Origin: an uncultured virus (IMG/VR IMGVR_UViG_3300027668_000014)
Taxonomy: Duplodnaviria; Heunggongvirae; Uroviricota; Caudoviricetes; Crassvirales
Length of the DNA: 64,000 bases
Strand: one strand, 5' to 3'
IMG/VR virus record: IMGVR_UViG_3300027668_000014
The notes beneath the pieces are model-generated. The model was not told the origin of the DNA and searched no databases. It saw nothing but the letters and a program-made list of their open reading frames with translations. Shown one piece after another: positions 6,245 through 35,658 of the stretch (position 1 is the first letter of the stretch; each line of letters starts with the position of its first letter). The position numbers and the translations under genes are program-made.

Positions 6245-6351
6245 GACGACTAATATACGATATGTACTATAACAATGAGATCAGCGTTGAGATTGCAGAG
6301 AAACTGCTTGACAAATTAACCCAGATAAGAGATAAAAAAAGATCATACTAA
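6241..6351 (+). CDS. small hypothetical protein (36 aa, not in ORF track)
   Basis: MRRLIYDMYYNNEISVEIAEKLLDKLTQIRDKKRSY*; fills the gap exactly with ATGA and TAATG overlaps. Confidence 0.55.
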   Translation: MRRLIYDMYYNNEISVEIAEKLLDKLTQIRDKKRSY

Positions 6352-8760: not shown

Positions 8761-9066
8761 ATGGCAAGTATAATTAAAGCAAGTCTAAATCTAGACGCAA
8801 TACCTAAGGATAAAATCTATGTAGGTAAAAAAGGTAAGTATTTGCCTATCACAATTACAATCAACGATGAGGTTGACCAATTCGGTAACCAAGGTCCAGT
8901 TGTTGTAGAACAATCTAAAGAAGAGAGAGACAGTAAAACACCAAAGACTTACTTAGGTAATGTTAAGGTTGTATGGTCTAACGGTACAAATGTTGAAGCT
9001 GCACCACGTGAAGGTCAAGCTCCTCCTGCTCAAACAGCTCCTCAGGTAGACGATCTACCATTTTAA
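8761..9066 (+). CDS. putative single-stranded DNA-binding protein
   Basis: beta-rich core, Pro/Ala/Gln linker and acidic tail DDLPF; lies before the primase-helicase. Confidence 0.7.
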   Translation: MASIIKASLNLDAIPKDKIYVGKKGKYLPITITINDEVDQFGNQGPVVVEQSKEERDSKTPKTYLGNVKVVWSNGTNVEAAPREGQAPPAQTAPQVDDLPF

Positions 9067-9067
9067 G

Positions 9068-10780
9068 ATGAGTAAAGAAGAGATCAATGGATTTCTGGTT
9101 GACAAGTTCAATCAGCATGGCCTAAAAGACGGTGCTTCGCAAGGGATATGTCCCTTGTGTTCACCTGATAGGAAACCTAAAAATACTAAAGCACAATGTG
9201 CTTCGTATGATTGGGAACGTGGTCTCGGTACCTGTCACAATTGCGATACAACATTTCAACTACATACTTATCAGCGTAAGGGCGCAAGTGAGAAAGTCTA
9301 TATACGACCAATTACTCCTGAGCAGTTCGACGATGTAAGTACTAATGTAGAGACTTGGTTCGGTACAAGAGCAATTTCAAAGCAAACACTTCAGGATCTT
9401 CAAGTAACCGAAGGTCCTGAATTTATGCCACAGACAGGTAAGACTGAGAATGCTATCAAGTTTAATTATTTCATGGGTGATCAGTTGATCAACATTAAAT
9501 ATAGAGACGGTAGAAAAAACTTTAAGCTATTCAAAGGTGCAGAAAAAGTATTCTATAATATTAACAGTGTTGTAGGTTATGATTGGTGTGTTGTTGTTGA
9601 GGGCGAGATGGATGTACTAGCTTTACACGAAGCTGGTATCAAAAATGCAATATCAGTTCCTAACGGTGCTACGCTGAACACAAACAACCTAGACTACCTA
9701 GATAATTGCATAGACTACTTAGACGATAAGACTAAGATAATATTAGCTGTTGATGCTGATGCTGCTGGTCAAGCCCTAAGAGCTGAGTTTATACGTAGGC
9801 TCGGTGCTGAGGTTTGTTATCTAGTAGATTTTCACGGCTGGAAAGATGCTAATGAATTTTTAATAGAAAATGGTGCTGAAAACCTGAGAAATGCTATACA
9901 CGACTCAAAACAAGTACCCTTAGAAGGTGTAACCACATTATATGATATACATGACGAAGTTAAAGAGTTTGTTACAAACGGTTTTAAACCAGGCTTTCAA
10001 GTCGGACTTAGCAATTTCGATAAGATCTTTAGTACTTACACTGGGCAGTTTATTACTGTTACTGGTATCCCTAGTTCTGGTAAGTCTGACTTTGTTGATC
10101 AAATGGTCGTTGGTTATAATAATATGTATGGTTGGAAGACTGCGTTTGCAAGTCCAGAAAATCAACCGACTTATCTCCACGCTCACAAACTAATGCGTAA
10201 GACTTGGCAAGATATGCCAACTCAAGCAGACATTGGCAGTGACAAATGGTTAGAAGTTACACAGAGGGTTAATGATAACTATTTCTTCATAGATATGGAG
10301 AGGTACACATTAGAGTCTGTATTAAAGAAAGGTGCCGAGCTTGTTAAACGAAAAGGTATTAAATGTCTAGTGATTGACCCTTACAATAAAGTAAGAGATA
10401 CAAACGCTGTGTCAGATGATGTTAATCGTTACACGATGGATTACCTAGCAAAGATCGAAACCTTTGCTAAAAAATATGATGTGTTAGTATTTATAGTGGC
10501 TCATCCAACTAAAATGTATAAAGGAAATGATGGTAAGATTGAAGAACCTACGATGTATAACATCAAAGGTGGTGGAGAATGGTACGACGCATCATACCAT
10601 GGACTTCTTGTTCACAGGAACTATGAGGAGAAGACTACTAAGGTTAAGGTGCTCAAGGTCAAGTTTCAAAACCTGGGCGAGAACGGAGCTGAAAGCCACT
10701 TTACTTGGGAACCACGTTCTGGCTCTTTCATTCCAAACGAACCAATAAAAGAAGAAGTCGGTGGCTTACCCTGGGAATAA
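9068..10780 (+). CDS. T7 gp4/Twinkle-like primase-helicase
   Basis: Zn finger CPLC...CHNC; TOPRIM VEGEMD and DADAAG; Walker A GIPSSGKS; VIDPY; VAHP. Confidence 0.93.
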   Translation: MSKEEINGFLVDKFNQHGLKDGASQGICPLCSPDRKPKNTKAQCASYDWERGLGTCHNCDTTFQLHTYQRKGASEKVYIRPITPEQFDDVSTNVETWFGTRAISKQTLQDLQVTEGPEFMPQTGKTENAIKFNYFMGDQLINIKYRDGRKNFKLFKGAEKVFYNINSVVGYDWCVVVEGEMDVLALHEAGIKNAISVPNGATLNTNNLDYLDNCIDYLDDKTKIILAVDADAAGQALRAEFIRRLGAEVCYLVDFHGWKDANEFLIENGAENLRNAIHDSKQVPLEGVTTLYDIHDEVKEFVTNGFKPGFQVGLSNFDKIFSTYTGQFITVTGIPSSGKSDFVDQMVVGYNNMYGWKTAFASPENQPTYLHAHKLMRKTWQDMPTQADIGSDKWLEVTQRVNDNYFFIDMERYTLESVLKKGAELVKRKGIKCLVIDPYNKVRDTNAVSDDVNRYTMDYLAKIETFAKKYDVLVFIVAHPTKMYKGNDGKIEEPTMYNIKGGGEWYDASYHGLLVHRNYEEKTTKVKVLKVKFQNLGENGAESHFTWEPRSGSFIPNEPIKEEVGGLPWE

Positions 10781-15647: not shown

Positions 15648-16103
15648 TCATATTACTTTGTATTTAGTTTTACCCTCCTCCTTATATGCCTGTAAGCATC
15701 TGTTTCTATTTTGAACGCTATTAACATAGCTTATGTGAACCCAATTAGGATTACCATCGTCACCAAATTCCCATATCATTTGATCAAACTTTAGGTTATC
15801 TTTAATCCAATGATACATTTCAGCATTAGTCTTCTTACAACCTCCATCATCTATATCCATTGCTTGACCCTTACAGTGTTGAGATGTAGTTGATCCCCCA
15901 ATAGCTTTGTTCAAGGCTTTACCTCTATAAAAACTATTGATTCTAATAGGTCCTCCAACCCACTCTCTTAACGGCTCAAACACTTCTTCAGCCAACTGCC
16001 TCATGTTTTCTAAATCAAATTGGTTTGGTGTGTTGTCTAAACCTCGGCGCGTAGCCGTGGTGCTATACACTCCTTCTTTATCGCTTATGTGTTTACTTAT
16101 CAT
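15648..16103 (-). CDS. peptidase M15A family endolysin
   Basis: INSFYR...LNKAIGGSTTSQHCKGQAMD...WVHIS (SxH, D, H Zn ligands). Confidence 0.88.
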   Translation of the reverse strand: MISKHISDKEGVYSTTATRRGLDNTPNQFDLENMRQLAEEVFEPLREWVGGPIRINSFYRGKALNKAIGGSTTSQHCKGQAMDIDDGGCKKTNAEMYHWIKDNLKFDQMIWEFGDDGNPNWVHISYVNSVQNRNRCLQAYKEEGKTKYKVI

Positions 16104-21221: not shown

Positions 21222-21938
21222 CTATTCGTAAATTGCCATATATTCAATAACTGTCTCAGTTTGATCATTCATTGTCACCGTAATGTCATCTTGTACATCT
21301 GTACCTTGAGTTGTTACACTAACCGCTAAAGCTCCACTAGCATTTTCAGCCCAATCACCCGCTACGTTAGTTTGTACGCCAGGGTATTTAGCAGTGAATA
21401 TACTTATAGCGGCGTTAGACCCGTGAGCAGTTACAACCCAGTTTCTATATTTTGTAGCCTGTATAACAGTCGCTATACCAGCTGCTGTCTGCGTGCTACC
21501 AACTGTAGCTGTTACGCCGTCAAAAATAGCTGTGTTGTTAGTAGCCCAACTACCAGAAGCTGTTAGTTCAAAAACCTCCTTTGCTCCGCGCACTGCGTTC
21601 CATGGAATAAACATCCAATCACCTCCATATAATCTACCTAATTTAATCTCAACGTCATTATCACCACTAGTTATACCTACTGTACCGTACTTCGCTGTAG
21701 AGGTTCCAGTGTTTTTAATGTAAACCTTGTTTGCTTTTAAAGCTGTAGCCTCTGTTTCGTCTACTAACAGTAGGTTCTGCTTAACATTAGATGCTATTCT
21801 TTTTTGTCTTAAACTCGTAGTGTCTGGAAGACCAGTAGCTGTTCCGGCTTTAGTAAGAGTTGCTGTGTTTGATATAGATAACGAGTTGTCCATTATGTCT
21901 GAGCTCGATAACGTTATACTTGCTGTTGTTGTTGCCAT
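21222..21938 (-). CDS. putative structural protein, paralogue A
   Basis: MATTTASITLSSSD start; GRLYGGDWMFIPW. Confidence 0.7.
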   Translation of the reverse strand: MATTTASITLSSSDIMDNSLSISNTATLTKAGTATGLPDTTSLRQKRIASNVKQNLLLVDETEATALKANKVYIKNTGTSTAKYGTVGITSGDNDVEIKLGRLYGGDWMFIPWNAVRGAKEVFELTASGSWATNNTAIFDGVTATVGSTQTAAGIATVIQATKYRNWVVTAHGSNAAISIFTAKYPGVQTNVAGDWAENASGALAVSVTTQGTDVQDDITVTMNDQTETVIEYMAIYE

Positions 21939-21961: not shown

Positions 21962-22387
21962 TTACGATGCTGCATTCAATGTTTCTCCCTCGTGGAAAAC
22001 CACCCATTCTATCACTTGTGCTGCTACAAAAGCTTGAACTTCTATATCTTGAGTATCTGCCGCTGCTTCCCAAGGCATGTACATCCAGTCACCTGCATAT
22101 AACCTACCTATTACTTGTGCTCCTATTGTAACAACCACATAGTGATCGTCATTAGTAGCTTTGTTAGCGATATAAAATTTATTAGCTTTGTTTGCGTGAG
22201 CCGCCGTAGCGTCAAGAAGGTCAAAGTTTGTTGGAGAACCTAAAGGTATTTCATTTCTACCCATCTTCACCTGTGTTACACCTGTAGTTGTACCAGCATC
22301 ATAAAGAGTTGCTGTTGATGACAACGATATAGGAGTGGATACTAAGTCAGGGCTAGATAGCGTGAATGTTGCTGTTGTTGTTGCCAT
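21962..22387 (-). CDS. putative structural protein, paralogue B
   Basis: MATTTATFTLSSPD start; GRLYAGDWMYMPW. Confidence 0.7.
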   Translation of the reverse strand: MATTTATFTLSSPDLVSTPISLSSTATLYDAGTTTGVTQVKMGRNEIPLGSPTNFDLLDATAAHANKANKFYIANKATNDDHYVVVTIGAQVIGRLYAGDWMYMPWEAAADTQDIEVQAFVAAQVIEWVVFHEGETLNAAS

Positions 22388-22403: not shown

Positions 22404-24758
22404 TTAATTGTTTAGTTTTATTTTCTTTTCAACCGTTCCATCATCATATATGTAGAACAGTAGCTTGTTATTACCTTCTTTAGAAGGTCTACCTAGTAAG
22501 TCTGTTATTGCCACTAGTTTTTTGGTAGCAGCTCTTCTAGCTGGTATATCTCCGATGTATGTTCCATCGCAGTAGTTGTAGGTTAATTGACATACTTCAT
22601 CCCACTCGTTATCGCAGCAATAGCTATCAACGCTAATAACCCAAGCGTAGCAAGGATCATTTAACCAATAAGGGATGCCAGGGCCAGTAGCACAGCCAGA
22701 AGCGTAAAGACAGTTATTGTCACTAACGTTGGCCTCAAGAAGATAGTTATAGGCATTAAGATCCATGCAACCCTCAATGATAGCGATACACGATTCGTTA
22801 TCCGTGTTAGCCAACGAGTCATAGTTGAGAGCCAAGACCTCCATACAGCCGTATAAAAATTCAATGCAAGTAAAATCCTCTGTGTTCGACAAGGGATTGT
22901 AATTAAGCATAGAAGGGTCCGTACAACCGAATACATAAGGAGTACAGCTATTATTGTCAGCATTTGCTAGTGGATTATAGTTAAACATTGTAGAGTCAGT
23001 ACACCCGTAAATATATGGTATGCAGGTTCCATCATTTGTGTTGGCTAGTGGGTTATAGTTGAATTGCGACGGGTTTATACATCCATATATAAACGGTATA
23101 CAGCTATTGTCCCCCGTGTTAGCCATGGGATCATAATTAAAAGCCGAGGTATCAATACATCCATATATAATTCCAATGCAGCTACCATCATCTATGTTAG
23201 CTAGAGAATCATAGTTTATAGCTATTGAGCTCATGCATCCGTATATAACTGCTATACACGTGTCTGAAACATTAGCGTTAGGGTTGTAGTTGAAGGCTAA
23301 AGCCTGCATACACCCTTCGACTATCGCTATACAAGAGTTAGGAAGTTCCGTGTTCGCTGTGTCAACATAATTAAACGCCGTAGAATCCATACACCCTAAA
23401 ACAACCAAGGTACTGCAGGAGCCATCGTCATAATCGTAGTTCGAGTTATACTCTAAGTATACTGGATTAGTACATCCTGGAGTATAATAACAACTAACAT
23501 CATCCGTGTTAGCTAATGGGTCATAATTAATTGCATTAGGGAATGTACATCCATAAACCATCTCTATACATTCATTACCACAGTTTGTTATTACAGGATA
23601 AGTTAAACTTGGTGTAATGAAAGGAGGCATTACACTAATCAGAGTATCTCCATCTGGATTAATTAAAGTAAACCCACATTCTATAGTTGTTGCTTGTGCT
23701 AAAGGATCTATGTTAAATACAAAACCAATAGGATCAGGTGCAGTTATACCTACTTGATAAATATCAGTAAACCCACCAGTGTGAGTAAAAGTATACGTTG
23801 TATCAGGAGTAAATAATTCCAAAGTAGATCCAACCCAACCGTTACCCATAAGATCATGTAACACAAGAGTGAACTCACAAGTGTCTACTAAATCCATTGT
23901 GTTAGCTAAAGCATCAAAATTATACATAGTAACATCGGTACACCCATATACTTTTAACGTAACACAACTACCATCATCTACGTCAGCGTAGTAATCATAT
24001 TCTAAATAGTCATAGTCTGTACAGCCTAATATAGGGGGACATGAGTCAGAAACAAAAGAATGTATAGTGTCAAAACCAAAAGCTGGATCCGTACCATACA
24101 CCAACGTATCATTACATTGTTTTACAAAATAAGAACCATCAGAGCCTTGCCATGCAGAACCTTGTAAACCATCACCGTATACGTCGTACATATTAAAGAA
24201 CAAAGATCCTTTAGGTATCTCTACTATTACATCTACCACGGAGTAAGGAGCAAGTGTGCCGTATCCTGATCCAGAAGCATGTATAACACCGTTTGAATCT
24301 TGTATGTCCCAAGAAGTCTCAGGTGTAAATTGATCTAAGTTAATTATAACGTTAGTGGGTACACCAGATTCTGGTGGTGCTGGCGGAGCACAAGGCCATA
24401 TGTTAACCAATGTATCTAATGTAAAGAATGCCATTGTTAATGGGTCATAGTTCAGTATAGGACCTTGACAGTCATTCTGCATTTTAAACGAAGATGGGTT
24501 AGTTGACACCCATCCATCTCCATAAGTATCGTTAAGCGATAATAAATAAGAGCCACTATTAATGGCTATAGTCGTGTCTAAATATTCATAAGACACTGTA
24601 GGTTGAAAGAACATAGCTGTATCACCAGAGGCGTCTGAAACCATGAAAAAGTTAGATTCTGAAGGGCCGTAAAAATCAAACTGTACCTTAAAGTTAACCC
24701 ATGAGTCTTGAGCGGATATACTTAGCGGTAATAATAATAGTATTAGTAGTTTTTTCAT
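22404..24758 (-). CDS. secreted Cys/Asp-rich repeat protein with T9SS-CTD-like tail
   Basis: Signal peptide MKKLLILLLLPLSISA|Q from ATG 24758; many GCxD...NYxPxANxDDxSC repeats; C-terminal KLVAITDLLGR...LLFYIYDDGTVEKKI. Confidence 0.8.
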   Translation of the reverse strand: MKKLLILLLLPLSISAQDSWVNFKVQFDFYGPSESNFFMVSDASGDTAMFFQPTVSYEYLDTTIAINSGSYLLSLNDTYGDGWVSTNPSSFKMQNDCQGPILNYDPLTMAFFTLDTLVNIWPCAPPAPPESGVPTNVIINLDQFTPETSWDIQDSNGVIHASGSGYGTLAPYSVVDVIVEIPKGSLFFNMYDVYGDGLQGSAWQGSDGSYFVKQCNDTLVYGTDPAFGFDTIHSFVSDSCPPILGCTDYDYLEYDYYADVDDGSCVTLKVYGCTDVTMYNFDALANTMDLVDTCEFTLVLHDLMGNGWVGSTLELFTPDTTYTFTHTGGFTDIYQVGITAPDPIGFVFNIDPLAQATTIECGFTLINPDGDTLISVMPPFITPSLTYPVITNCGNECIEMVYGCTFPNAINYDPLANTDDVSCYYTPGCTNPVYLEYNSNYDYDDGSCSTLVVLGCMDSTAFNYVDTANTELPNSCIAIVEGCMQALAFNYNPNANVSDTCIAVIYGCMSSIAINYDSLANIDDGSCIGIIYGCIDTSAFNYDPMANTGDNSCIPFIYGCINPSQFNYNPLANTNDGTCIPYIYGCTDSTMFNYNPLANADNNSCTPYVFGCTDPSMLNYNPLSNTEDFTCIEFLYGCMEVLALNYDSLANTDNESCIAIIEGCMDLNAYNYLLEANVSDNNCLYASGCATGPGIPYWLNDPCYAWVISVDSYCCDNEWDEVCQLTYNYCDGTYIGDIPARRAATKKLVAITDLLGRPSKEGNNKLLFYIYDDGTVEKKIKLNN

Positions 24759-24762
24759 GTAT

Positions 24763-25047
24763 TTAATTTGGTACGCATTTGTCTTTCCCATTTTCAGTAC
24801 CAGCATAGCTGTAGCCTTCCCAGCAAGCTTTACCATCAGCACCTTGTTCTTTACCAGCTTTATTTTTCTTAGTCATCGGTGATTGGCCAGGGTAAGAATA
24901 CCCACTCATTTTAAATGGACCACCTGGTTTGTGAGACACAACCTTGCTAGTCCCACTGTGCTCTGCGCCTGTGTGAACTTTACCGTCCATTTTGTGTGTT
25001 TTACCCTTGTACTCACCGTCTTCCGTATAATGCTTTACTCCTTTCAT
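24763..25047 (-). CDS. small basic His/Gly/Lys-rich protein
   Basis: MKGVKHYTEDG...; ACWEGY...KCVP. Confidence 0.6.
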   Translation of the reverse strand: MKGVKHYTEDGEYKGKTHKMDGKVHTGAEHSGTSKVVSHKPGGPFKMSGYSYPGQSPMTKKNKAGKEQGADGKACWEGYSYAGTENGKDKCVPN

Positions 25048-25048
25048 A

Positions 25049-25330
25049 TTATGATTTTTTATGTTTTCTACAAAAAGAATTAGCCGCCGCAACACTACCA
25101 AAACCCCATTTTTTCAAAGCCAAAGCCTTACTAGTTGGCTCACCGTTCTTTTCTTTCATCGGGCCTTTCATACCACCAAACCTACAAGCAAAACTAACTC
25201 TTCTAGGGCTAGTGCCACTAGTTAGTTTACTGCCCATGGTTGGGTTTTCCTTTCTCATCTTAACGTTATTCTTGTTGTATGTTGATTCCTTTATTTTTAA
25301 CGGACCAACTGACCTGTTGTCGTATGCCAT
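25049..25330 (-). CDS. small basic phage protein
   Basis: RRVSFACRFGGMKG...ALALKKWG. Confidence 0.65.
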   Translation of the reverse strand: MAYDNRSVGPLKIKESTYNKNNVKMRKENPTMGSKLTSGTSPRRVSFACRFGGMKGPMKEKNGEPTSKALALKKWGFGSVAAANSFCRKHKKS

Positions 25331-25331
25331 T

Positions 25332-25694
25332 TTAAAAGTCGCTCATTAATAATTCATCTATAAAGTTCTGCATTTCTTTTCTTGTAGCCTTCATACTAAA
25401 CGATATGTCAGCTTGATATCTTTTCATTTCCTCGCCATCTTTGTATATAACAACTGTTGGTACAACAACTATTTCATGCTTAGCTTGTAATTTAGGTGCG
25501 GCTGCTATGTCCACGTACACAATGTCGCAGTCTGTTAGCTTACCTATGTAGCTTACTTTGTTAGGATCATTCCAAGCCGCATTGAAGTGTGTAACCACTA
25601 TTTGCGCAGACGCTTTTTGAGCGACACACACTAGGAATAAAACTAATATATATACGCCCAGTATCTTCCATGAAATATCTATATTCTTCATCAC
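25332..25694 (-). CDS. exported thioredoxin-fold protein lacking CxxC
   Basis: Signal ...QKASA|Q; HFNAAWNDPN in place of FxAxWCxxC; VVPTVVIYKDGEEMKR. Confidence 0.75.
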   Translation of the reverse strand: MMKNIDISWKILGVYILVLFLVCVAQKASAQIVVTHFNAAWNDPNKVSYIGKLTDCDIVYVDIAAAPKLQAKHEIVVVPTVVIYKDGEEMKRYQADISFSMKATRKEMQNFIDELLMSDF

Positions 25695-25975
25695 CTTAAT
25701 TTATCAATTTTATCCTCCATGCGCCTGAGGTTAATCTTCATTTCATCTACAGCTTTCTCCGTGTTCTCTATAGATAGTCTAATGTTTCTATCTTTCATAT
25801 CAAACTCCATGCGCGACACATCTTGCGGTGGTGGGACTGGTAGGGTTTTTGCTTCAGCTATATCTGCTTGTAACATAAACCACATGCTAATAACTGTTGC
25901 CATAGCGGCTCCAATACCTACTAGCGTCTTTATACTTACCTGAAAACCACTGTTCTCGTTTAATTCTTTAGCCAT
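25691..25975 (-). CDS. membrane-anchored coiled-coil protein
   Basis: One N-terminal hydrophobic helix, Pro linker, C-terminal heptads. Confidence 0.7.
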   Translation of the reverse strand: MAKELNENSGFQVSIKTLVGIGAAMATVISMWFMLQADIAEAKTLPVPPPQDVSRMEFDMKDRNIRLSIENTEKAVDEMKINLRRMEDKIDKLR

Positions 25976-25976
25976 G

Positions 25977-27026
25977 TTAAAATATTACGTAGTTTACACC
26001 AAATTTAAAGTCGTACCATTCTCTGTTCCAGTACTTGTTGTATTTTCCTTCTGCAAACGCCCCTAGGTGCTTGTTGATTTTAACGCCAAGAATTACTCCA
26101 CCTGAATAATCTAACCATTGTTTGCCTGCAAAATTATGATAATTGTATTTGCCTCCATCATCATAGTGATACGGCATTAGGTTACCCCAACCGTGACACC
26201 AGTAGTTTTTGCTATAGTGATAGAAGTCAAAACCCACCACAAACGATTGTAGCGTGCTGCTTTCCATTTCGTTTCTTTTTCTCTCTGAGTAATCGGCTAG
26301 CACTTGTGGTATTACAATAGCCTCCCAAACCTCTGCACTGTTAGCCACTATGTTACCCGCTGGATCGTAGTACATTTGATGCCACACATCAACATTGTAA
26401 CCTTCTTCCAAAGCTAGGTAAGTGTAGTGTATATCTCCATTACTTAACAGCCAGTCGTCTAACGGGTTGTAACCGTAGGGTTCTGAGCGTCTTTGAACGG
26501 CTCCAGCGTTAACAGAGAACTTCCTGTTAAACTTATATCTATATCTTTCCGATGCTTCAAAGTACTTTATATCAGCAAAACCATCCTCTAAATACTCTCC
26601 TTTGATGGTATAGTGATCGCTAACGTACCTTATAAAATGGTGTTGATCAAGATACTCGTTGCCCTCCTGTCTCTTGAAATCCATTTCAAATAAGTATTCA
26701 ACTCCTCTTAGCTTACCCACAGTGGCCGCGTCACTGTAATTCGTCTCGGTTCCGTCATAAAATGTATTTGCTTTATTTTCGTAACCGAATCTAGCTATTT
26801 TACGTAGTCCCATGGTGAGATTATAATCATAGGGAGTTGAAATTGTTTGTGTTGATAACCCGTTGTCTACAGAGAAAACCTCTACGTTTGACAAGGAGGT
26901 TCCACCGTTCACGGCAGCATAGAATGTAGAGAACTTAAATAGCTTCTTAACATCCTCTCTACCAAACGTTTGTGCTGTTACTATGTTAGACACTAGTAGC
27001 AGTAGTATTATTAATCTTTTCACCAT
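25977..27026 (-). CDS. putative outer-membrane beta-barrel protein
   Basis: Signal MVKRLIILLLLVSNIVTA|Q; alternating aromatic strands; C-terminal YDFKFGVNYVIF resembling a BAM beta-signal. Confidence 0.75.
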   Translation of the reverse strand: MVKRLIILLLLVSNIVTAQTFGREDVKKLFKFSTFYAAVNGGTSLSNVEVFSVDNGLSTQTISTPYDYNLTMGLRKIARFGYENKANTFYDGTETNYSDAATVGKLRGVEYLFEMDFKRQEGNEYLDQHHFIRYVSDHYTIKGEYLEDGFADIKYFEASERYRYKFNRKFSVNAGAVQRRSEPYGYNPLDDWLLSNGDIHYTYLALEEGYNVDVWHQMYYDPAGNIVANSAEVWEAIVIPQVLADYSERKRNEMESSTLQSFVVGFDFYHYSKNYWCHGWGNLMPYHYDDGGKYNYHNFAGKQWLDYSGGVILGVKINKHLGAFAEGKYNKYWNREWYDFKFGVNYVIF

Positions 27027-27060: not shown

Positions 27061-30000
27061 TTAATCGTGGTAGTAACAATAACCACTTGCAGCCGACGTT
27101 TTCATACCGCATCTTTTTCCATTGCTCTTTCTCTTTTTGCACTGGACTTTATCACCACTTTTACTTTGCTTAACCTTAACGTGAATAGTGCAATATGAAC
27201 TACCTGGTTCTATCTTCGTTTTACATCTGTTACCGCTTTTACTTACAGCGGCACACAAAACTTTTTTCCCATCTTTTTTCTCCTGCTTTTGCTTTTGCTT
27301 ATTAATAACCTCTTGATTAGCTTCTTTTTTAGACTTTTTTTCTTTCTTTTTATTTTTTTTAAGGTATTCTTTTGTAGCTTCAATGTCTGGATCTCTAATG
27401 CCAAGGTCCCAAGTGCTCCAACCTAATAATAAAGCAGTTCTTTCCCAAAAAGAATTACTATCGTCTAAAGCGTTATCTATGTTAAGCATTTTATTAGCCA
27501 GTCTTCCTAAGGGTATATTTGTCACACCTTCTACAACGTTACCAATACCAGACCAAATAGGGTTATCTAAAGTTAAGCCTCGCTCTGTAAACACGCCTTT
27601 GTTAAACTGCTCTGTTTGTATTGACGAATATATTTTACGTAACTTAGATCCTATTGGTGGTGAAAAACTAAGTAGTGATAATATAGTGTATGTGTGATCA
27701 GCATTCCAACCTTTGTCTTTTTGTTTGATGTATTCTCTTATAGCGTTTTTTGTAGTACTAATAGCTTTACCACCATAACCAATACCAGATAAGACAGAAT
27801 CAATCATACCGTTCAGTATTCTATATTTCTTTTTATCAAATTCTTCCTCTTCGTCCTCACCAGTAGAAGCTAATAGTGCTGATTGTAGCGCTCCAAACAA
27901 TATACTTTGAGCCACACCATAGTAAGCTATTTTTGACAAATGTGTTTTAGTGTCACCTCTACCATTGGCTAAATCTCTAGCAGCTTTATTCATTATACGA
28001 GCGTACTGCATAGGTGTATTCTGGAATGATAGTATCAATCTCCCAAGCGGAGAGGCTTGTTGTTGTGATATCATATCAGGTCTCGCTGACTGCTGAGACA
28101 CCTCTGTTGTTTCTTGAAAATCTAAAAACGCTTGAGCCTCAGCCTGCTCTTGAGTCATACCTTCTTTTACTAAAGCTTTAACTTTGTTCCTGTAAAAAGT
28201 AGCACCACCAGAAGCAATGGCAAAACTATCCGCTAGTTGTGTCGGTAAAAAACCTTTCTTAAGCAACCAAGCTATAGCCGCTTTTGCTTTGTTTTCCGTA
28301 CCGGCAACCGCAGCTGACAACTCAGCTTCATTAATACCTCTTTGATTACCAGATCTTCTTTGCTTTAAGTACGCAGAGTTAAAAATCATTGTAAAATCTC
28401 TCCAATATTGCGGTTGGTTAGCAAACGCTAGAGCTGCTTTAGCTGGATTATTAAAACTCCAGTTAATGTAATTCGTAGCAGATATAGTTTGAAGTATTGC
28501 AGATCGCATGTTAAAGAACATGATAGCACCAACTGAATTATTAACCCAGTTCATGTAGGTATTCATTATTCTACCTCCACCAGCAGGCCTATTTCTACCA
28601 GTCCTCATTCTATACAAAGAATCCTCTAGTGCCTCTCTAAAGTTAGCTCCATATATAGATTCTATTTTGTTCAAGTTCTCTTTTGAGAATATAATGTCAA
28701 CATTTTCCTGCCACTCAGCAAGTAGATCAGCTCTAGCGTCTCCAATCGCACCATCGCTAAGCAAATCAGAAGTTATATTTTCAGCCAACCAATAATCTCC
28801 AGGAGCAGAATAACCTTGATCTTTTCTAGATATCAAACCAACCCCATCCGCGTAGTTTTTTAACTCAGGATTACCTTCAACATGCTCTATTAGAGTTTTT
28901 AAATCTTTTTTAGATAAACCAGGAACATCAAAACCAGCTTTGCTCCAAAGATAAACTCTAGCAGCTTGGTCATTCGTGAATGCTGATCCTTCTATTTTTT
29001 TGTTTATTATTTTTTTAACCTCAGGATATGCTTTTTGTAAATTTTTGTAATCGTTAGAAGCATTTTGTCTCGATGTGTTTAATTGATCTATGCCTCTAGC
29101 AAATGGATCTACTAATGCTTTTTTAAAGAAGGCAATATCAGCATCACCCTTTTTACCTTTGCCCACAAAATTGTATATCAATCCCATGAAATCTTGTGCT
29201 GACGGTGGTATTATGCCTTTGTACCTAGCTTTAGCACCTCTTATTTTAGCTTGAGCATCAGAGAACACTTTTTCCGACTTAACATCAGTTGTAACCTGTA
29301 GTATATCATTAAAAGTCTTGCTCATTCCCTTGCTAAACTTAACTTTAGCTTGTTGTACCTTACGTTTAACGTCAAACTGTTCTAATATGTTGTCAACAGC
29401 TTGAACATTTTGCAAGGCATCATCCGCGAAGTAAAAGTCATTATAGCCTTCACTAACCTTTTCAACCATCCAGAGCGCCTTAGCGTTAGCGGTTGAGTTA
29501 GCTAGTCCAGTGATATTTTTTAAAGGTATGTTCAAACCATTAGCTTGTAAGAAAGCAAATATAGCCGGAGCAGCCTCTGCTGGTCTAGCCGTTAACACAA
29601 ACATATTCTCAGGACCAAACTTACCTTGCAATTTCATTGCCTTGTTAAATAGTGGTGCTGTTTTACCGTCTACAACTTTGTTAAACTCTGAGAAGTCCCA
29701 TTCATAACCTAGCTCAGTCAACTCCTCATAAGTGCTAGCGTATTGCTCTGCGTTTAAAGTACCCTTAGTTCCATCAGGCTTTGTGTATCTAATTAATGAA
29801 TTACTTGTTGCTAGTGTATCGTCAAAATCCAACACAGTGATACCTTTGCTACCTTTAACAGAAGACTTGCCATTTTTACCAGCCTTAGCCAAGATCTGTT
29901 GTTGTTTACTGTCTCTCATCATCTTTAAATGAGTAGAGCTATCAATAAGCTTTTGTAAACCAGCAACAGTACCAATGCTGTGTGGTGAGCTCATGTCGTC

Positions 30001-33000
30001 TAGCGTTGTGTTTGGTATTAAAGGTATTGCCCTCCAAGCGTATCTCTTGACGTCTCTTTTCACCTGCCACTTAGCACCACTCACGCCGTTCTTAAATATA
30101 CTTCCGTTTTTAATCTCTGGAGCCTTGTTTCTTTTATCAGCGTCAGTAGCCGCAGACTTCTTTGTTGTTGACCCGACTCTCAAGCCTATAGTTCCATCGC
30201 CTTTGAATTCAGGTAAATTAAGAATGTTTTTGGTATCGTTAAAACCACCCATGTAAAACAAACCCCTACCCATCATCTGCATTACATTAACAGGGTAGCC
30301 TTTTTTCTTATTGTATATCTCTGATATAACATCTAGCTTTATAGGTATCTCAGCGTGCATGTGTCTGAAATACGTTTTGGTTTTGCCATTAAAAGTAACC
30401 TGGTTGTTTTTGTCGGTAAGTAATCTATGCGCCCATCCAGGTAGTTCCGATATATCGTCCCAAACGTAGCCTACCTTGCCGGTGTCAGGATTTTCTACTG
30501 TTAAAAGATAGTCTTTAGCAAGTTGTATACCGGGTTGAACGCCCTCTCCTAGTTCCTTTAGTATTTTATTACCAAACGTGTAGTCTTTTTTAATAATAAA
30601 ATCTCCATTAGCATCTATAGCAAATGTGACGCTACTATACTGAGCGTTGCTCATTTTGGCTTCAATGTTGAATACCTCTCCGTATAGAGCTATAATAGCA
30701 TCTGGTTTACCACCAACCTCTGTTGGCGCTCTCAACACGGCTTGAACAACATCTTTACCTAATCTTTTTTCCAGCTGAATAGTCATGTCTATTAAGCCTT
30801 TTTCATAAGCAGTGCCTCGCTCTCCTTCTTTGAATAATTTATGATAAGCTTTTTGAACGTAAAGTATATCGCCGATTCCCTCTAGTTTTTTACCACGCAA
30901 ACTCCATATAAGATCTGCCGCCTTCGTTTCTTTTTTTAGTTCTAGTTGATCTACATACTTAGGTAACAACTTGCCGTCGCTAGAAAACACATTGCTAATA
31001 TCTGTTTTAGTAACTAATTCAAGTATGAAATCAGCATCAGCCTTTGCTTTAGCCGAGTATTTGATTTGATCTTTGTAGTTGCCCTCAACTTCTTTTTTCT
31101 GTCTATTTAAAGTATTTGCAAAATTATCAAGCTCAGCCTTTATAACGGCATTCATATCCTTAGAGTTGTCAATGACAACATCATTTGCAACATCTACCGC
31201 GTATGCTTCTCCTATAAGTATTGCTAGCTTCTCTTGCCTTCCCCTCAACTTAGTGTTGTGTGACCTTGGATCTGCATCACTAGTGGTGTCAGTAAAAAAT
31301 TTAGTAAACTTAGCTTTGTTTGTTACTAGCTCGTATATATTTTTCCTGAAGTTACTATCTTTTTTTAAAGCCTTATTGTCTGACTTCTTATTCTTTTTAT
31401 CTTCCTTGCCTATAACGTTTAACTCAAACAGTGTGTTGTAGTTATTTTTTATAGTAGCCACATCTAAACTTTGAACAATGTGGGTGTAGTTGTCAGCTAT
31501 AAACTTCTTATATTGATCACTTATAACTATAACCCCACCCTTAAAGCTAATGGTACCCATTTGAGCTTGTATAGCCAAACGTATATCTCCTTTAATTAAC
31601 TTTTGAATTGCCTGCGTTAAGTTCTTCGGGTTACTTTCAATCAAAGCATCGACTTGAGCTCTAATATTTCCGTCTATAACACCAGGGTTATCGATGTTAA
31701 TATCTGCTAGATTCTTTAGAACTCTAGCTTTTTGAACTCTAATGTTATCGTTTTTGTTAGTTTGATCGTTTTCAGTACCTTCATCAACCATTTTGTCAAA
31801 CAGTGTTTTACCATCTTCCGTTACAGCATCACCACGTACTTCTTGTTTTCTCTTCTCTCCTTCCTTGTATAGTTTTTCCTTAGCAACTAAAGCAGCATAA
31901 CCAATGTTACCTTTTTTACCACTACCACCATACATCCACTTAGAAAGCTCAGGTGTTTTAGCTGGGTCGTAGTTTATTAATCGTGTACCTAGGTTTTCTC
32001 TTTGTATTTGTTTTTGCTCGTTGGATATACCCTCTGCAAACACTCTATCAAAGCCGCCTTGTAATATACCCGTGTATATGGTTGAGAAAGGTGATCGCAT
32101 ACCGCCTTCTTGTAGTTCTGCTATACTCTTTGCACCGTTAGTGTAAGAATCTATGCGCTCGCTGATATCCATGCCTTCAAACTTAGGATCATCCAGGTTT
32201 ACAGCTCTTGATGCCTTCACTAGATCACCAGCAAGATTACTTGTTTTGACTTTAGTAGCGCCTGTTGATAGAACAGCATTTTTAGATATAGTATTAGCTT
32301 TTATAGCTTTTATATCCGCAGCGTTAATTGTTCCTGCTTTTATTTTCTTAGCTATACCTATTAAAAATTTTATAGAATCGGTTTCACCTTTTAAATCGAC
32401 AGGTTTACCACCTACCTCTTCAATACCCTTGTTCATTAACGTGGCAAAAAATCCAGCTTTTCCTGACTTTTTAATGTCAACCTTACCAGAAGCAACTTCT
32501 TCTAAAAACAACATAACAATTTCATCCGCATCAGTCTGTCTACCGTTTCTAAAGGAAACCCTTTTAAACGCGCTAGGGTTGTTTGTTTTTAAATGTTGCA
32601 GTATTTGCTCGGCTAATCCTTCAAATGCCTTAGGATCGCTAGAAATAGCTTTTATAAACACGGAGTGTCCAACCTCATGTGTTCTTGTCTCTAGCCTATC
32701 GTCAGCAGCCATAGTTTCAACAACTTGCATTGGTATCAGTACGGTGTTACCATCAGCATCCTTATCCGTCGTTGGTATGTTAGCGCCGTGTGAACCGTCC
32801 TTGATATTTTTTATTGCTTTTTTTCTATTGGCCTCGGTTATGTTTGTAAGCCCTTCAACATACTCAATGGCGTCTTCTTCTGTTTGCACGTTAACAACAT
32901 CTGTTAAACCCGCTTTAGAATTTGCCTTGTGGTCAGCGTTGATTTTATCAACGTTATATAAAAACTTAGCTTTATCGTTTATTTGAATAGCTGTAGGATC

Positions 33001-35658
33001 TTTCTTGCCTTCGTTAAACAACTCGCTTTTAGCCTTTTTATTTAACTCGGTAACCCTGTCTGCGTTCCCTTCAATTCCTTTAAAAGCGGTCCACTCATCT
33101 CCAAATGCTTTTTTATCTTTAAAAGCCTCCATCTGACGACCAGTAGCATCAAACCTTGCTTGCACTGCTTTTAATTGGTCTCTTTTTTGTTTTTTTGTTA
33201 AGGTTTTGTTATTATCAATTTCTTGGGCTTCAAGCTTCAACGCTTCTTGCTGTTGTTCTAGATTAAAGTATATCTTAGTCACGTCAGAGCTAAGTCCTTG
33301 CACTTCCGTTTCAAGCTCCTTCATTTCAGCTACATTCTGGTCATACAGTTGAGCTATTATTTTCTCGTTGCTTTTTTTATCTTTGTTTAGATCTTTAATT
33401 GCTTTTTCCCTACCGTCCATACCGTACTCCTTCAGCTCAGCTATTTTACTGTCAATCTCTTGGTTTGTAAGGCCTAGTTTTTTCATTTTATTAACACGCT
33501 TTCTTACTTCAGCTTTTGAAGCGTGGTCGTTATACTTGTTTAAGTACGCACCTTTTATAAACGGAGCCGCAGATAAAGTGGTACCAAACATCAGCCCAGA
33601 GAACATAGCGTGTCCTAATCCTTGCGTCATGGGTTTTCCATCAATCCAATTCTGTGTTAACTGGGTCATTCCCTCACCTATAGGCTCGGACAAAGCACCA
33701 TAAACAAATTTACCAGTGTTCTTTTTAAAATACTCTTTAGTGGTTCTGAACAATAATTGCTTTGCACCCGGAGTGTTTGCAAAACCTTTTCTTGCAGCCC
33801 TAAGCAAAGGTATTGTTGTTAGGCGTTCAAAAACTAATTCAGACGCACCAAATCCAACAGAGCTCCACCAAATGTCAGCGTTAGATTTTTGCCTTCCACC
33901 GGGACTGTCCCGCTCCATGTTTAAGTTAACGTAGTGATCACCAAAAGCTGACACACCAATTATACTAGTACCGACATATGGTATTGCCAGCGCGGCAAAT
34001 ATAGGTATTTGATTAGACACCTCTTGTGCGGCAAACTCACCAAAGTTACCAATAGAGCTAAACGCATCTTCAAACTCAACATCTTTACTATAGGAATCTC
34101 TAGTTTCTTGTAGCTTCCCTTTTATAGCGTGCGACTTTTGTATAAGTCTTTTTGTCGCAGCGTTCTCCCCTGTGATAAGCAAGGGTATACCAGTCTTAAC
34201 ATTAAGACCAATCTCAAATGCGCCCATGCTTGTTTCGACTAAAAACTCTTCCCAAGCATTGTAGTTTCTCCTGGATATATCTATAGCAGCAACATTATCG
34301 CTATAGCCAGCGGCTTGCTCTTGAATACTCTCTGAAAGCTCATTTATAGACGATATCTTAGCTGTCACACCTGGCTGTAGAGCTTGGTATTCTTTAATAA
34401 TTTTTTCAGGAACTTTCTTTCCATTCTCTAACTCAGCGTAGCTCTCACCCTCTTGAAGTTCATATTCAAAGTTGGCATCGCTAAACTGCGAGTTAATTTC
34501 CTTATACCTAGCCATGTCAGCACCAGACTCCAGGTCTTCTCTTTTAAGATCATAAAGAGCCATGTCTTTCCTGAAATCAATGTCGAGTTCTCTAGCGGCT
34601 AAATTGTATTGTTCTTGAACTCCCTCTTTTTTGTTGACGTTCAGCATGTCATTTCTCTGAACAAAGTCATTGTAGTTCATTACACTTGTCAGCTTTTCTG
34701 CTTTGATTTCTTCAATGAGAAAACTTTTAGCTAGCGCTTGTACTTGATCTTTAGTTGGCTTGCTACCATCTTCTGACAACTGCTTTTGAGCTCGTTTTAA
34801 TTCTTTTTCAAAAGCTATATCTTCGTATGTACCAGCATCTTTAAAGTCATTACCAAAGCTAAATATCTTTTTAGTTTCTTGAGTGAAAAGCTCCCCGCTC
34901 TCGAATTTTTCCTCTACCTCAGCTATATCCTCAGCCGCCAACTCATCTCTCTCAAGATTCATCTCGGTCAAAAGCTTTTTTCTACTAGCTTTTTTAGTAG
35001 CTTGGGAGTTTAATCCTTCTTGGGTAGTGTTTTCATTAATAAAGTTTGTTAGTATATCATAAGAGTGATTCCTAGCATCTTCTTTTGACATCATCAATTC
35101 ACCAAGTTTCTTACGCATGCCTACCTCGTAATCTTTTTCCCCGTAAAGATTAGGTGCCATTAAACTACCACCTATATTCATATCAAAAGAAGCGGATTTT
35201 TTACCATCTTTAGTACTAACCGTTATGGCATCAAAACCACCACCACCATAACCACTAGCATCTGTGTCTACTTGAAATAGTTTTTCTTCAAATACAAAAT
35301 CATCACCATACAACTCTCTTAATGTCTCAACGCCTTTTTCCTCTGTCTTGTTAAAAAAGTTTAAGTTGTTAGCACCTAACACATCACTTGGGGTTGATCC
35401 CGAGCCAGATAAGGCTGATCTTGGGTTTGGTTTAGTAGGTTTTACCTCCTCAACCTCTACCTCTTTAACTTCTTCAACTTTAGGTTTTTCAGCTACCACC
35501 TTTGCTTCTTTTATTTTATTAGCCTCTCGCTTTTTAATCTCAGCAAGCTGTTCTTTCGTGAACTGACCAGAGTCTATATGGCCTTGCATAATTCTATCTA
35601 ATTCAGATTTAACTATAGTAGATTTCGCTTCTCTTATTCCAAATGAATTATCGTTCAT
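27061..35658 (-). CDS. giant putative internal virion/ejected polyvalent protein
   Basis: 2865 aa, largely helical; hydrophobic G/A-rich segment; HEVGH, PD...EAK, DFDDT HAD motifs; C-terminal CCCH repeats. Confidence 0.75.
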   Translation of the reverse strand: MNDNSFGIREAKSTIVKSELDRIMQGHIDSGQFTKEQLAEIKKREANKIKEAKVVAEKPKVEEVKEVEVEEVKPTKPNPRSALSGSGSTPSDVLGANNLNFFNKTEEKGVETLRELYGDDFVFEEKLFQVDTDASGYGGGGFDAITVSTKDGKKSASFDMNIGGSLMAPNLYGEKDYEVGMRKKLGELMMSKEDARNHSYDILTNFINENTTQEGLNSQATKKASRKKLLTEMNLERDELAAEDIAEVEEKFESGELFTQETKKIFSFGNDFKDAGTYEDIAFEKELKRAQKQLSEDGSKPTKDQVQALAKSFLIEEIKAEKLTSVMNYNDFVQRNDMLNVNKKEGVQEQYNLAARELDIDFRKDMALYDLKREDLESGADMARYKEINSQFSDANFEYELQEGESYAELENGKKVPEKIIKEYQALQPGVTAKISSINELSESIQEQAAGYSDNVAAIDISRRNYNAWEEFLVETSMGAFEIGLNVKTGIPLLITGENAATKRLIQKSHAIKGKLQETRDSYSKDVEFEDAFSSIGNFGEFAAQEVSNQIPIFAALAIPYVGTSIIGVSAFGDHYVNLNMERDSPGGRQKSNADIWWSSVGFGASELVFERLTTIPLLRAARKGFANTPGAKQLLFRTTKEYFKKNTGKFVYGALSEPIGEGMTQLTQNWIDGKPMTQGLGHAMFSGLMFGTTLSAAPFIKGAYLNKYNDHASKAEVRKRVNKMKKLGLTNQEIDSKIAELKEYGMDGREKAIKDLNKDKKSNEKIIAQLYDQNVAEMKELETEVQGLSSDVTKIYFNLEQQQEALKLEAQEIDNNKTLTKKQKRDQLKAVQARFDATGRQMEAFKDKKAFGDEWTAFKGIEGNADRVTELNKKAKSELFNEGKKDPTAIQINDKAKFLYNVDKINADHKANSKAGLTDVVNVQTEEDAIEYVEGLTNITEANRKKAIKNIKDGSHGANIPTTDKDADGNTVLIPMQVVETMAADDRLETRTHEVGHSVFIKAISSDPKAFEGLAEQILQHLKTNNPSAFKRVSFRNGRQTDADEIVMLFLEEVASGKVDIKKSGKAGFFATLMNKGIEEVGGKPVDLKGETDSIKFLIGIAKKIKAGTINAADIKAIKANTISKNAVLSTGATKVKTSNLAGDLVKASRAVNLDDPKFEGMDISERIDSYTNGAKSIAELQEGGMRSPFSTIYTGILQGGFDRVFAEGISNEQKQIQRENLGTRLINYDPAKTPELSKWMYGGSGKKGNIGYAALVAKEKLYKEGEKRKQEVRGDAVTEDGKTLFDKMVDEGTENDQTNKNDNIRVQKARVLKNLADINIDNPGVIDGNIRAQVDALIESNPKNLTQAIQKLIKGDIRLAIQAQMGTISFKGGVIVISDQYKKFIADNYTHIVQSLDVATIKNNYNTLFELNVIGKEDKKNKKSDNKALKKDSNFRKNIYELVTNKAKFTKFFTDTTSDADPRSHNTKLRGRQEKLAILIGEAYAVDVANDVVIDNSKDMNAVIKAELDNFANTLNRQKKEVEGNYKDQIKYSAKAKADADFILELVTKTDISNVFSSDGKLLPKYVDQLELKKETKAADLIWSLRGKKLEGIGDILYVQKAYHKLFKEGERGTAYEKGLIDMTIQLEKRLGKDVVQAVLRAPTEVGGKPDAIIALYGEVFNIEAKMSNAQYSSVTFAIDANGDFIIKKDYTFGNKILKELGEGVQPGIQLAKDYLLTVENPDTGKVGYVWDDISELPGWAHRLLTDKNNQVTFNGKTKTYFRHMHAEIPIKLDVISEIYNKKKGYPVNVMQMMGRGLFYMGGFNDTKNILNLPEFKGDGTIGLRVGSTTKKSAATDADKRNKAPEIKNGSIFKNGVSGAKWQVKRDVKRYAWRAIPLIPNTTLDDMSSPHSIGTVAGLQKLIDSSTHLKMMRDSKQQQILAKAGKNGKSSVKGSKGITVLDFDDTLATSNSLIRYTKPDGTKGTLNAEQYASTYEELTELGYEWDFSEFNKVVDGKTAPLFNKAMKLQGKFGPENMFVLTARPAEAAPAIFAFLQANGLNIPLKNITGLANSTANAKALWMVEKVSEGYNDFYFADDALQNVQAVDNILEQFDVKRKVQQAKVKFSKGMSKTFNDILQVTTDVKSEKVFSDAQAKIRGAKARYKGIIPPSAQDFMGLIYNFVGKGKKGDADIAFFKKALVDPFARGIDQLNTSRQNASNDYKNLQKAYPEVKKIINKKIEGSAFTNDQAARVYLWSKAGFDVPGLSKKDLKTLIEHVEGNPELKNYADGVGLISRKDQGYSAPGDYWLAENITSDLLSDGAIGDARADLLAEWQENVDIIFSKENLNKIESIYGANFREALEDSLYRMRTGRNRPAGGGRIMNTYMNWVNNSVGAIMFFNMRSAILQTISATNYINWSFNNPAKAALAFANQPQYWRDFTMIFNSAYLKQRRSGNQRGINEAELSAAVAGTENKAKAAIAWLLKKGFLPTQLADSFAIASGGATFYRNKVKALVKEGMTQEQAEAQAFLDFQETTEVSQQSARPDMISQQQASPLGRLILSFQNTPMQYARIMNKAARDLANGRGDTKTHLSKIAYYGVAQSILFGALQSALLASTGEDEEEEFDKKKYRILNGMIDSVLSGIGYGGKAISTTKNAIREYIKQKDKGWNADHTYTILSLLSFSPPIGSKLRKIYSSIQTEQFNKGVFTERGLTLDNPIWSGIGNVVEGVTNIPLGRLANKMLNIDNALDDSNSFWERTALLLGWSTWDLGIRDPDIEATKEYLKKNKKKEKKSKKEANQEVINKQKQKQEKKDGKKVLCAAVSKSGNRCKTKIEPGSSYCTIHVKVKQSKSGDKVQCKKRKSNGKRCGMKTSAASGYCYYHD

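Follow-up and report, generated by a model that had tools for sequence, protein, structure and literature searches.

An envelope-protein trio conserved in two phage types as a candidate device for the outer-membrane step of lysis, with a linked type IX secretion-type cargo

The uncultured virus recorded in IMG/VR as IMGVR_UViG_3300027668_000014 was analysed over a stretch of 64,000 nucleotides (the window), in which positions 22404-27026 hold six minus-strand genes separated by gaps or overlaps of 1-34 nt. Three of these, termed here the trio, code for proteins predicted to be spread over all three envelope layers: a bitopic inner-membrane protein with a periplasmic heptad helix (25691-25975), an exported, redox-dead periplasmic thioredoxin fold (25332-25694), and a 14-strand outer-membrane beta-barrel (25977-27026). 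A fourth gene (22404-24758) codes for an exported Cys-rich repeat protein, termed the cargo. We propose that the trio, made late, would act on the envelope at the end of infection and serve the outer-membrane lysis step that is done elsewhere by Rz/Rz1-type spanins, with the cargo as a T9SS-type add-on (T9SS, type IX secretion system); we place the probability of this reading at about 0.4. The spread over three envelope layers, the holin/endolysin neighborhood, and strong purifying selection together argue for a late-acting envelope device. In mechanistic terms, the barrel, inserted by the beta-barrel assembly machinery (BAM), would be the outer anchor and the thioredoxin fold the periplasmic connector, such that these and the inner-membrane coiled coil might span the periplasm and, after cutting of the wall, break or fuse the outer membrane. 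An earlier reading made from the letters alone (the sequence-only reading) had seen four co-oriented envelope-type genes here; these are indeed present as open reading frames (ORFs), all on the minus strand, and their products appear equipped for export, with the inner membrane, the periplasm, the outer membrane, and probably the cell surface as destinations.

The barrel protein (349 aa) begins with MVKRLIILLLLVSNIVTA, an SPI-type signal followed by QT and cleaved after residue 18 (between VTA and Q; all signal peptides were assigned by eye and hydropathy), and ends in ...GVNYVIF with a final Phe. Its AlphaFold2 model, built from a 34-row alignment, shows ~14 strands and a helical insert that spans residues 182-256 (pLDDT 72.1, pTM 0.68). 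Every strong fold match, in Foldseek and in a Foldseek-independent search, is an outer-membrane beta-barrel with no family standing out: NanC in the former (E 2.2e-5), and Omp33 (Z 10.8, rmsd 4.2, 164 aligned), the EstA translocator (Z 10.7), and TamA (Z 10.5) at the top of the latter. The protein thus combines the generic features of outer-membrane barrels, viz., a signal peptide, an even-stranded closed barrel, and an aromatic last residue, as the sequence-only reading had predicted. In a language-model atlas its listed neighbors are all barrel families, and it is solely as such a neighbor (score 0.93) that Phage_OMP (PF24653) was seen, the Pfam OMP models, including PF24653, giving no match at E <= 0.1. 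More widely, the Pfam, PHROGs, NCBIfam, and PADLOC scans returned no family for the barrel, the membrane protein, or the cargo, and Pfam on 34 barrel members was likewise negative.

Among 73 full-length barrel orthologues, 32 have lipobox-type signals (..LVAC AAPKKCCSQ), 39 SPI-like signals, and two signals left unclassified by pattern; this alternation of SPI and lipoprotein types suggests that export itself is under selection. Of these orthologues, 52 end in F, 18 in R, two in L, and one in I. The Arg-ending orthologues (18/73; ...NYIIR) are unusual as bearers of a BAM beta-signal. Median identity among relatives is 67% for the barrel versus 51% for the neighboring giant protein, and conservation is even over strands and loops, including a low-confidence, predicted periplasmic segment (77-107); the 182-256 insert is large, conserved, and predicted to be extracellular. 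A Ser-His-Asp site considered in the barrel (S261, H278, D306, each at least 90% conserved) was dropped, as the residues lie far apart by the strand registers of the model.

The membrane-protein gene, 1 nt from that of the barrel, codes for 94 aa comprising an N-terminal transmembrane (TM) helix, a PVPPP linker, and a C-terminal heptad-repeat helix. The description of this product as a single-TM coiled-coil protein in the sequence-only reading agrees with a single hydrophobic stretch by hydropathy (residues 13-31; Gly/Ala-rich and weakly hydrophobic, mean 1.65) and with hydrophobic residues at 9/12 a/d heptad positions in residues 53-94, a pattern reached by 13/5000 shuffles. By these features it would share the i-spanin trait of an N-terminal TM helix with a helical or coiled-coil periplasmic domain. 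The core MWF.LQADI.EAK..P of its alignment (A2) is invariant in both of the phage lineages discussed below, and its profile found nothing in the PDB below E 0.15. At 25692-25790 a single metatranscriptome contig (run X3; depth 2; short side of 21 letters) omits 97 nt of this gene, on support too slender to bear a reading.

The thioredoxin-fold protein (120 aa) has a signal ending in ...QKASA, with cleavage after residue 30 (between ASA and Q), and carries WNDPN at the active-site position, lacking CxxC. Its profile (A3, 36 members) matched 212 PDB sequences of thioredoxin type at E <= 1, 2vim being the best at 8.7e-10, and the CGPC loop of solved thioredoxins aligned to a gap; in A3 itself W41 and N42 are invariant and WN..N is kept, with no Cys there. 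The single sequence scored 23.1 bits against Pfam Thioredoxin (PF00085; cut-off 23.5). The exported thioredoxin fold with WNDPN posited by the sequence-only reading is therefore recovered by profile comparison. A precedent for a periplasmic thioredoxin fold without a redox motif as a structural part of an envelope machine is TraF of the F plasmid, the context of which differs. A predicted complex of barrel residues 19-349, membrane-protein residues 36-94, and thioredoxin residues 31-120 scored 0.00 in a run without controls and neither supports nor opposes contact among the three.

Barrel homologues number 3681 at E <= 0.001, with relatives on 411 viral contigs. Linkage in the window's lineage was counted in the 80 best loci around barrel relatives, many of which are broken by contig ends: the barrel is present in 80, the membrane protein in 71, the thioredoxin fold in 69, and the cargo in 62, with contig ends accounting for most missing genes. 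All four occur together in 57/79 related viral loci, many ending at a contig edge. They are found in two orders, namely giant protein, barrel, membrane protein, thioredoxin, variable inserts, and cargo, or giant protein, membrane protein, thioredoxin, cargo, and barrel, both of which keep the four genes contiguous apart from small inserts. The expectation of the sequence-only reading that these genes co-occur in other phages is thus borne out on hundreds of phage contigs.

An exhaustive search for the barrel family yielded 338 cluster representatives, among which a full-length branch (P0173, 26% identity) lies on 130 viral contigs and defines a second lineage. This belongs to a different phage type, with a phrog_156 portal and another capsid family. 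Here the genes for membrane protein, thioredoxin, and barrel are directly adjacent, the set being complete in 67/67 loci with upstream room; of 80 loci, all have the barrel, 69 the thioredoxin, and 67 the membrane protein, and those lacking a gene have their upstream DNA cut off. Profiles for the cargo C-terminus, the canonical tail, and the short tail matched 0/80 of these loci within the flanks covered. By gene content, then, the trio works without the cargo within those flanks, and this marks the trio as the core and the cargo as an add-on. One second-lineage phage (L152) has a second small TM/heptad protein between thioredoxin and barrel (7681-7956) and, overlapping the end of its barrel and ahead of its holin, a 2x[4Fe-4S] ferredoxin-like ORF (9023-9331; Fer4, E 1.4e-10). 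No viral contigs came from further barrel lineages (P0139, P0228, P0125). A set of 50,697 GenBank phage records contains no copy of the barrel; a pattern scan of 185,579 species genomes found it on three contigs of metagenome-assembled genomes (MAGs), all with phage synteny, and the family profile matched one of 401 sampled Bacteroidota genomes, a MAG containing a phage-syntenic contig. The trio is accordingly restricted to phage contigs.

Both lineages place lysis genes beside the trio. Of the 71 second-lineage loci that have at least 2 kb downstream, 58 encode a member of a holin family (phrog_3427; PF11351 E 2.7e-15), which starts 4-1130 nt after the barrel in 57. The same family follows the module in 10 loci of the window's lineage and on a MAG contig (L085); in L030 its gene adjoins the cargo and in L042 and L067 the barrel, the order in L067 being barrel, holin, endolysin. 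An M15 endolysin lies within 3 kb downstream of the module in 14/32 relatives with that much DNA. The window has a holin-family gene at 62979-63371 (minus strand; phrog_3427 'holin', E 3.2e-31; PF11351 at 25.6 bits, cut-off 24.8) and an endolysin of the Peptidase_M15_3 family at 15648-16103 (minus strand; phrog_894 E 1.2e-32; PF08291 E 1.9e-14). In a hydropathy scan of the late strand, the flagged ORFs taken as genes were the trio and the holin only, six others being put down to nested or overlapping frames or to segments inside large proteins; the cargo escaped because its ORF opens at an upstream GTG, and no classical spanin pair of a small lipoprotein and TM protein was seen. A 230-aa protein after the holin in L111 was considered as a lytic transglycosylase and found unsupported (no Pfam match, nothing in the PDB below E 0.6, PHROG 'unknown function').

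The same neighborhood could be read as control of lysis timing, with the membrane protein and its periplasmic partners acting, like T4 RI, as an antiholin-type sensor by which the holin is delayed or triggered. The proximity of the holin family in two lineages would suit this, as would a 94-aa membrane protein joining a weakly hydrophobic N-terminal helix to a periplasmic helix. We nonetheless consider such a circuit quite improbable: the family and PDB scans showed no likeness to any antiholin family, a 330-aa outer-membrane barrel is unexpected in it, and the window's holin is 36 kb from the module.

For the proposed outer-membrane lysis step, the natural comparison is with the spanins, which a survey describes as an N-in/C-out inner-membrane protein with a helical periplasmic domain paired with an outer-membrane lipoprotein (PMC6139136). 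That survey counts 91 phages without an identifiable spanin and hypothesises other routes (Kongari et al. 2018, PMC6139136), and few flavobacterial phage isolates carry an annotated spanin (PMC8776804). Like the spanins (lambda Rz/Rz1), the trio has a part in the inner membrane, whose TM helix is N-terminal and whose periplasmic domain is helical, and a part in the outer membrane; its genes are adjacent and, in relatives though not in the window, stand beside holin and endolysin genes; and in 32/73 barrel orthologues a lipobox-type Cys is followed by two further ones. Unlike them, it has as its outer part a ~330-aa 14-strand barrel in place of a short, proline-rich lipoprotein, always includes a soluble thioredoxin-fold protein as a third part, has a short periplasmic helix, and is unrelated to them in sequence. 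With a barrel as its outer part, a third part, and no model match, the trio is not a spanin by membership. We raise, more tentatively than the lysis role as such, the possibility that, next to spanins and disruptin-type peptides, it represents a third class of device for lysing the outer membrane, with an adhesin-like protein displayed through the host T9SS on the dying cell in one lineage. Full-text literature searches found no description of the trio or of a barrel-based lysis device.

Phage-made barrels for the host outer membrane have themselves been described. A preprint discusses outer-membrane barrels in huge phages and exclusion mediated by lambda Lom (Yuan and Chen 2026, bioRxiv 10.64898/2026.10.24.761521), Lom being reported to bind LamB and block superinfection (bioRxiv 10.64898/2026.10.24.761521). 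The window barrel resembles these in being a phage-encoded, signal-peptide beta-barrel destined for the host outer membrane; it differs in that its family matches no Pfam OMP model, in its obligate linkage to two envelope proteins and to lysis genes, and in the phage, going by its relatives, not being a huge one. Superinfection exclusion or receptor masking, in which the barrel with its two partners blocks or alters a phage receptor such that infected cells and their debris stop adsorbing phages, would draw on this precedent and on how common phage-encoded outer-membrane barrels are (bioRxiv 10.64898/2026.10.24.761521), on the conserved, predicted extracellular 182-256 insert, and on the adhesin-like surface cargo, the variable tip of which would suit interplay at the receptor level. 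We regard it as unlikely on several grounds. A receptor mask should co-vary with receptor-binding proteins, whereas the barrel has a median identity of 67% against 34-44% for tail-fibre genes, and two phage types that are not related share it. Expression of exclusion genes is usually early or confined to lysogens, whereas the trio sits in a late operon and showed no promoter signal of its own in a sigma-70 consensus scan. Nor does exclusion account for the inner-membrane and periplasmic partners or for the holin neighborhood.

The cargo has 784 aa when read from MKKLL, its ORF opening at GTG 24842. Its signal peptide (residues 1-16, by inspection) is MKKLLILLLLPLSISA, followed by QD and ending in ...PLSISA, with comparable N-termini in the full-length orthologues listed; the three signal peptides of the interval therefore all end in Ala before Gln (VTA, ASA, and ISA before Q, by eye and hydropathy), as the sequence-only reading had noted. 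Residues 17-400 form three beta-sandwich domains (model pLDDT 84.5), the fold matches of which are weak (Z <= 7.0) and include calcium-dependent carbohydrate-binding modules, PLAT/C2 domains, and adhesins. These are followed by 14 units of ~26 aa of the type GC(T/M)D..A.NY.P.AN.DDGSC, a Cys-rich knot (~689-730), and a short tail of 45-50 aa (...KKLVAITDLLGRPSKEGNNKLLFYIYDDGTVEKKIKLNN; 22407-22556, minus strand), which is a candidate reduced sorting signal; the protein has 39 Cys in all. The language-model atlas places it among unnamed viral clusters only. Thirteen cargo orthologues carry a canonical T9SS C-terminal domain (CTD) where the window's copy has the short tail. All eight long-tail orthologues tested matched Pfam Por_Secre_tail (E <= 0.01), six of them above the 27-bit cut-off, as against none of three short-tail orthologues, and one orthologue (L051) is matched by both the short-tail and the canonical-tail profiles. 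The same short tail is found at the end of a signal-peptide-bearing GH16+CBM48 enzyme encoded on a Bacteroidota chromosome, which is suggestive only, as well as at that of metagenomic M43 peptidase, Omp28-family, and BNR proteins. We thus consider the cargo to be probably a T9SS-type secreted, adhesin-like protein with a variable tip: a clade-specific, Sec-exported add-on with a beta-sandwich tip and a Cys mini-repeat stalk, which the host T9SS would probably place on or outside the cell.

The mini-repeat, in the form GC(T/K)D..A.NYNP.AN....C, also occurs in a protein of Synechococcus phage S-CAM3 (L166, 2572-4122) that is annotated 'virion structural protein' and has no signal peptide, and in metagenomic secreted enzymes (P0319, P0320, P0325) that share the cargo's short C-terminal tail. 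Its distribution suggests a small module that moves among marine proteins.

A phage-encoded T9SS type A cargo has been reported in 'Cryophage' (Bellas et al. 2020, PMC7468147). The likeness is that a phage with a Bacteroidota-type host encodes a Sec signal and a T9SS tail on a cargo part that varies among relatives; in 'Cryophage' the flexible islands encode enzymes and a PA14 protein as cargoes, whereas the window's is a non-enzymatic repeat protein fixed beside a conserved trio, with a short tail unrecognised by T9SS models. The remark in the sequence-only reading that no such phage system was known is too strong for two components, phage T9SS cargo and phage outer-membrane barrels being in print already; for the trio as such, the literature searches gave no description.

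The sequence-only reading had further offered a private handling or anchoring route, in which a PorV/PorP-like barrel and a thioredoxin-fold chaperone serve and display the disulfide-rich T9SS cargo. The window barrel does resemble PorV and PorP/SprF in its size (~350 aa), predicted 14 strands, Bacteroidota-type setting, and position beside a T9SS-type cargo; the linkage of the four genes, the Cys-richness of the cargo, and the T9SS tails of its orthologues are in line with the idea, and PorV is among the fold matches (Z 8.0). However, PorV (6h3i_F) ranks 26th (rmsd 5.6, 174 aligned), below many unrelated barrels and no better than them, and no PorP/SprF or PorV model matched either the window barrel (Pfam, NCBIfam) or the 34 members of the barrel alignment (Pfam, E <= 0.1). 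The thioredoxin fold has no cysteines with which to act on disulfides, and the barrel occurs without cargo in the second lineage, the trio-bearing loci of which showed no cargo or CTD (0/80, within the flanks covered). The recurrent holin neighbor and the cargo-free trio together speak against a private route and toward an envelope role at the end of infection; we hold the private route to be distinctly unlikely.

Lastly, the proteins might be virion parts or assembly factors, their N-terminal hydrophobic stretches not being export signals. The genes are indeed flanked by that of a 2865-aa protein, presumed to be internal, and by tail-fibre-like genes, and the S-CAM3 protein bears the mini-repeat in an annotated virion protein lacking a signal peptide. 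This we deem very improbable: export signals are kept in all orthologues, with the barrel alternating between SPI and lipoprotein types, the fold matches of the barrel are all integral outer-membrane proteins, and cargo orthologues carry secretion tails.

Several observations weigh against the proposed role of the trio in the outer-membrane step of lysis. By the queries used, 13/71 second-lineage loci have no holin; in the window itself neither lysis gene touches the module, the holin being 36 kb upstream of it and the endolysin 6.3 kb downstream; and 'holin' is here a family label, the function being predicted. The outer part of the trio is a barrel of ~330 aa rather than a small lipoprotein, with no lipobox in the window copy, the confidence of its model is middling, and the periplasmic helix of the membrane protein, at ~55 residues, is shorter than typical i-spanin ectodomains. 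Scans with Pfam, PHROG, and NCBIfam gave no match to spanin models or families. The constant linkage of the cargo to the trio in the window's lineage is unexplained by a pure lysis role. Regarding the T9SS part, the cargo tail matched neither PF18962 nor TIGR04183 (Pfam E <= 0.1; NCBIfam E <= 1), and so, of the Cys-repeat protein with a CTD-like tail that the sequence-only reading described, the 784 aa, 39 Cys, and 14 repeats stand, and a tail recognised by T9SS models does not for the window's own copy; the short-tail profile aligns weakly with the canonical tail (hhalign probability 15.8%), and the short tail is present in just 1/401 sampled Bacteroidota genomes. The gene products, their export signals, folds, and linkage, their confinement to phage contigs, and the holin and endolysin neighbors in relatives are shown here, whereas contact among the trio proteins, the lysis role, the use of T9SS by this short tail, the surface location of the cargo, and the nature of the host are inferred.

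Two small genes separate thioredoxin and cargo in the window and appear to be variable passengers. The first (25049-25330, minus strand) codes for a small basic DUF6321 protein (93 aa; Pfam PF19846 E 2.7e-9) found in only 4/80 related loci; in the second lineage DUF6321-type genes lie between barrel and holin (40 ORF hits). The second (24763-25047, minus strand) codes for a small basic Gly/Lys-rich protein (94 aa from ATG, its ORF opening at TTG 25101) ending in ...CWEGY..GK.KCVPN, which is present in 2/80 related loci and had no family match in the Pfam or PHROG scans. Within the interval, blastn matches to isolates are confined to these two genes (69-83% identity) and involve Pelagibacter phage HTVC200P, Methylophilales phages, and Synechococcus phages.

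The wider genome has early genes on the plus strand, to ~15.3 kb of the window, coding for a glutaredoxin, an ATP-dependent ligase, a sigma-like protein, an ERF recombinase, a PDDEXK nuclease, a primase-helicase, thymidylate synthase, MazG, and ribonucleotide reductase. The sigma-like protein (6351-7136) weakly matches regions 2 and 4 of sigma-70 (24.2 and 22.7 bits, scores equal to or slightly below the cut-offs) and may be a phage sigma factor for late genes. The minus strand is a long late operon, running from the holin family, a GroES-like protein, terminase, portal, and capsid protein to a 3066-aa protein, the 2865-aa protein, the six-gene interval, tail-fibre-like genes, and the M15 endolysin. 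The tight packing of the interval in this operon and the lack of promoter or terminator signals of its own mean that it is part of the late operon and not a moron: promoter-like sites (20 vs 17.3 +/- 4.0; sigma-70 consensus, Bacteroidota promoters not covered) and terminator-like sites (4 vs 3.2 +/- 1.6) were not above shuffles. G+C is even over the region (0.37-0.39), and no integrase was found among the scanned window proteins, in keeping with the sequence-only reading, which had likewise doubted a lysogenic-conversion moron. Metatranscriptome contigs from four runs in four studies match the module and its neighbors at 95-100% likeness and low depth; as RNA libraries can carry phage DNA, these matches are no proof of transcription.

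The window's capsid protein shares 40-46% identity with its counterparts in Maribacter phage Panino and Flavobacterium 'elemo' phages, and 15 of its 85 matching records are of Cellulophaga phages; these relatives suggest that the host is probably a marine flavobacterium. Going by relatives, the genome is not that of a huge phage. The 3066-aa virion protein (40321-49521) has a Crassvirus muzzle C-terminal domain (PF25729, E 2e-6), a domain match that links this flavobacterial podophage group to crAss-like tails. The 2865-aa protein (27061-35658), directly upstream of the module, had no Pfam or PHROG match; only its last third (~residues 1900-2865) is conserved in relatives, at the median identity of 51% given above, and its C-terminal end is a Lys-rich, Cys-containing tail. 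Directly after the module lies a paralogous gene pair (21962-22387 and 21222-21938), both products starting with MATTTA(T/S)(F/I)TLSS...; relatives have 1-3 copies in variable order at this place, which may code for fibre or decoration proteins.

For phages of Bacteroidota and many marine phages, little has been learnt of the route of exit through the outer membrane, and the trio offers a testable candidate for the missing step. Its candidacy rests on its abundance (the 3681 homologues and the 411 and 130 viral contigs of the two lineages), its conservation, its restriction to phages, and its holin neighbors in two phage types. If the association of the cargo with T9SS is true, a lytic phage would be exploiting the type IX secretion of its host late in infection, and placement of the cargo by this route would bear on cell-surface change, aggregation, and phage adsorption in ocean blooms.

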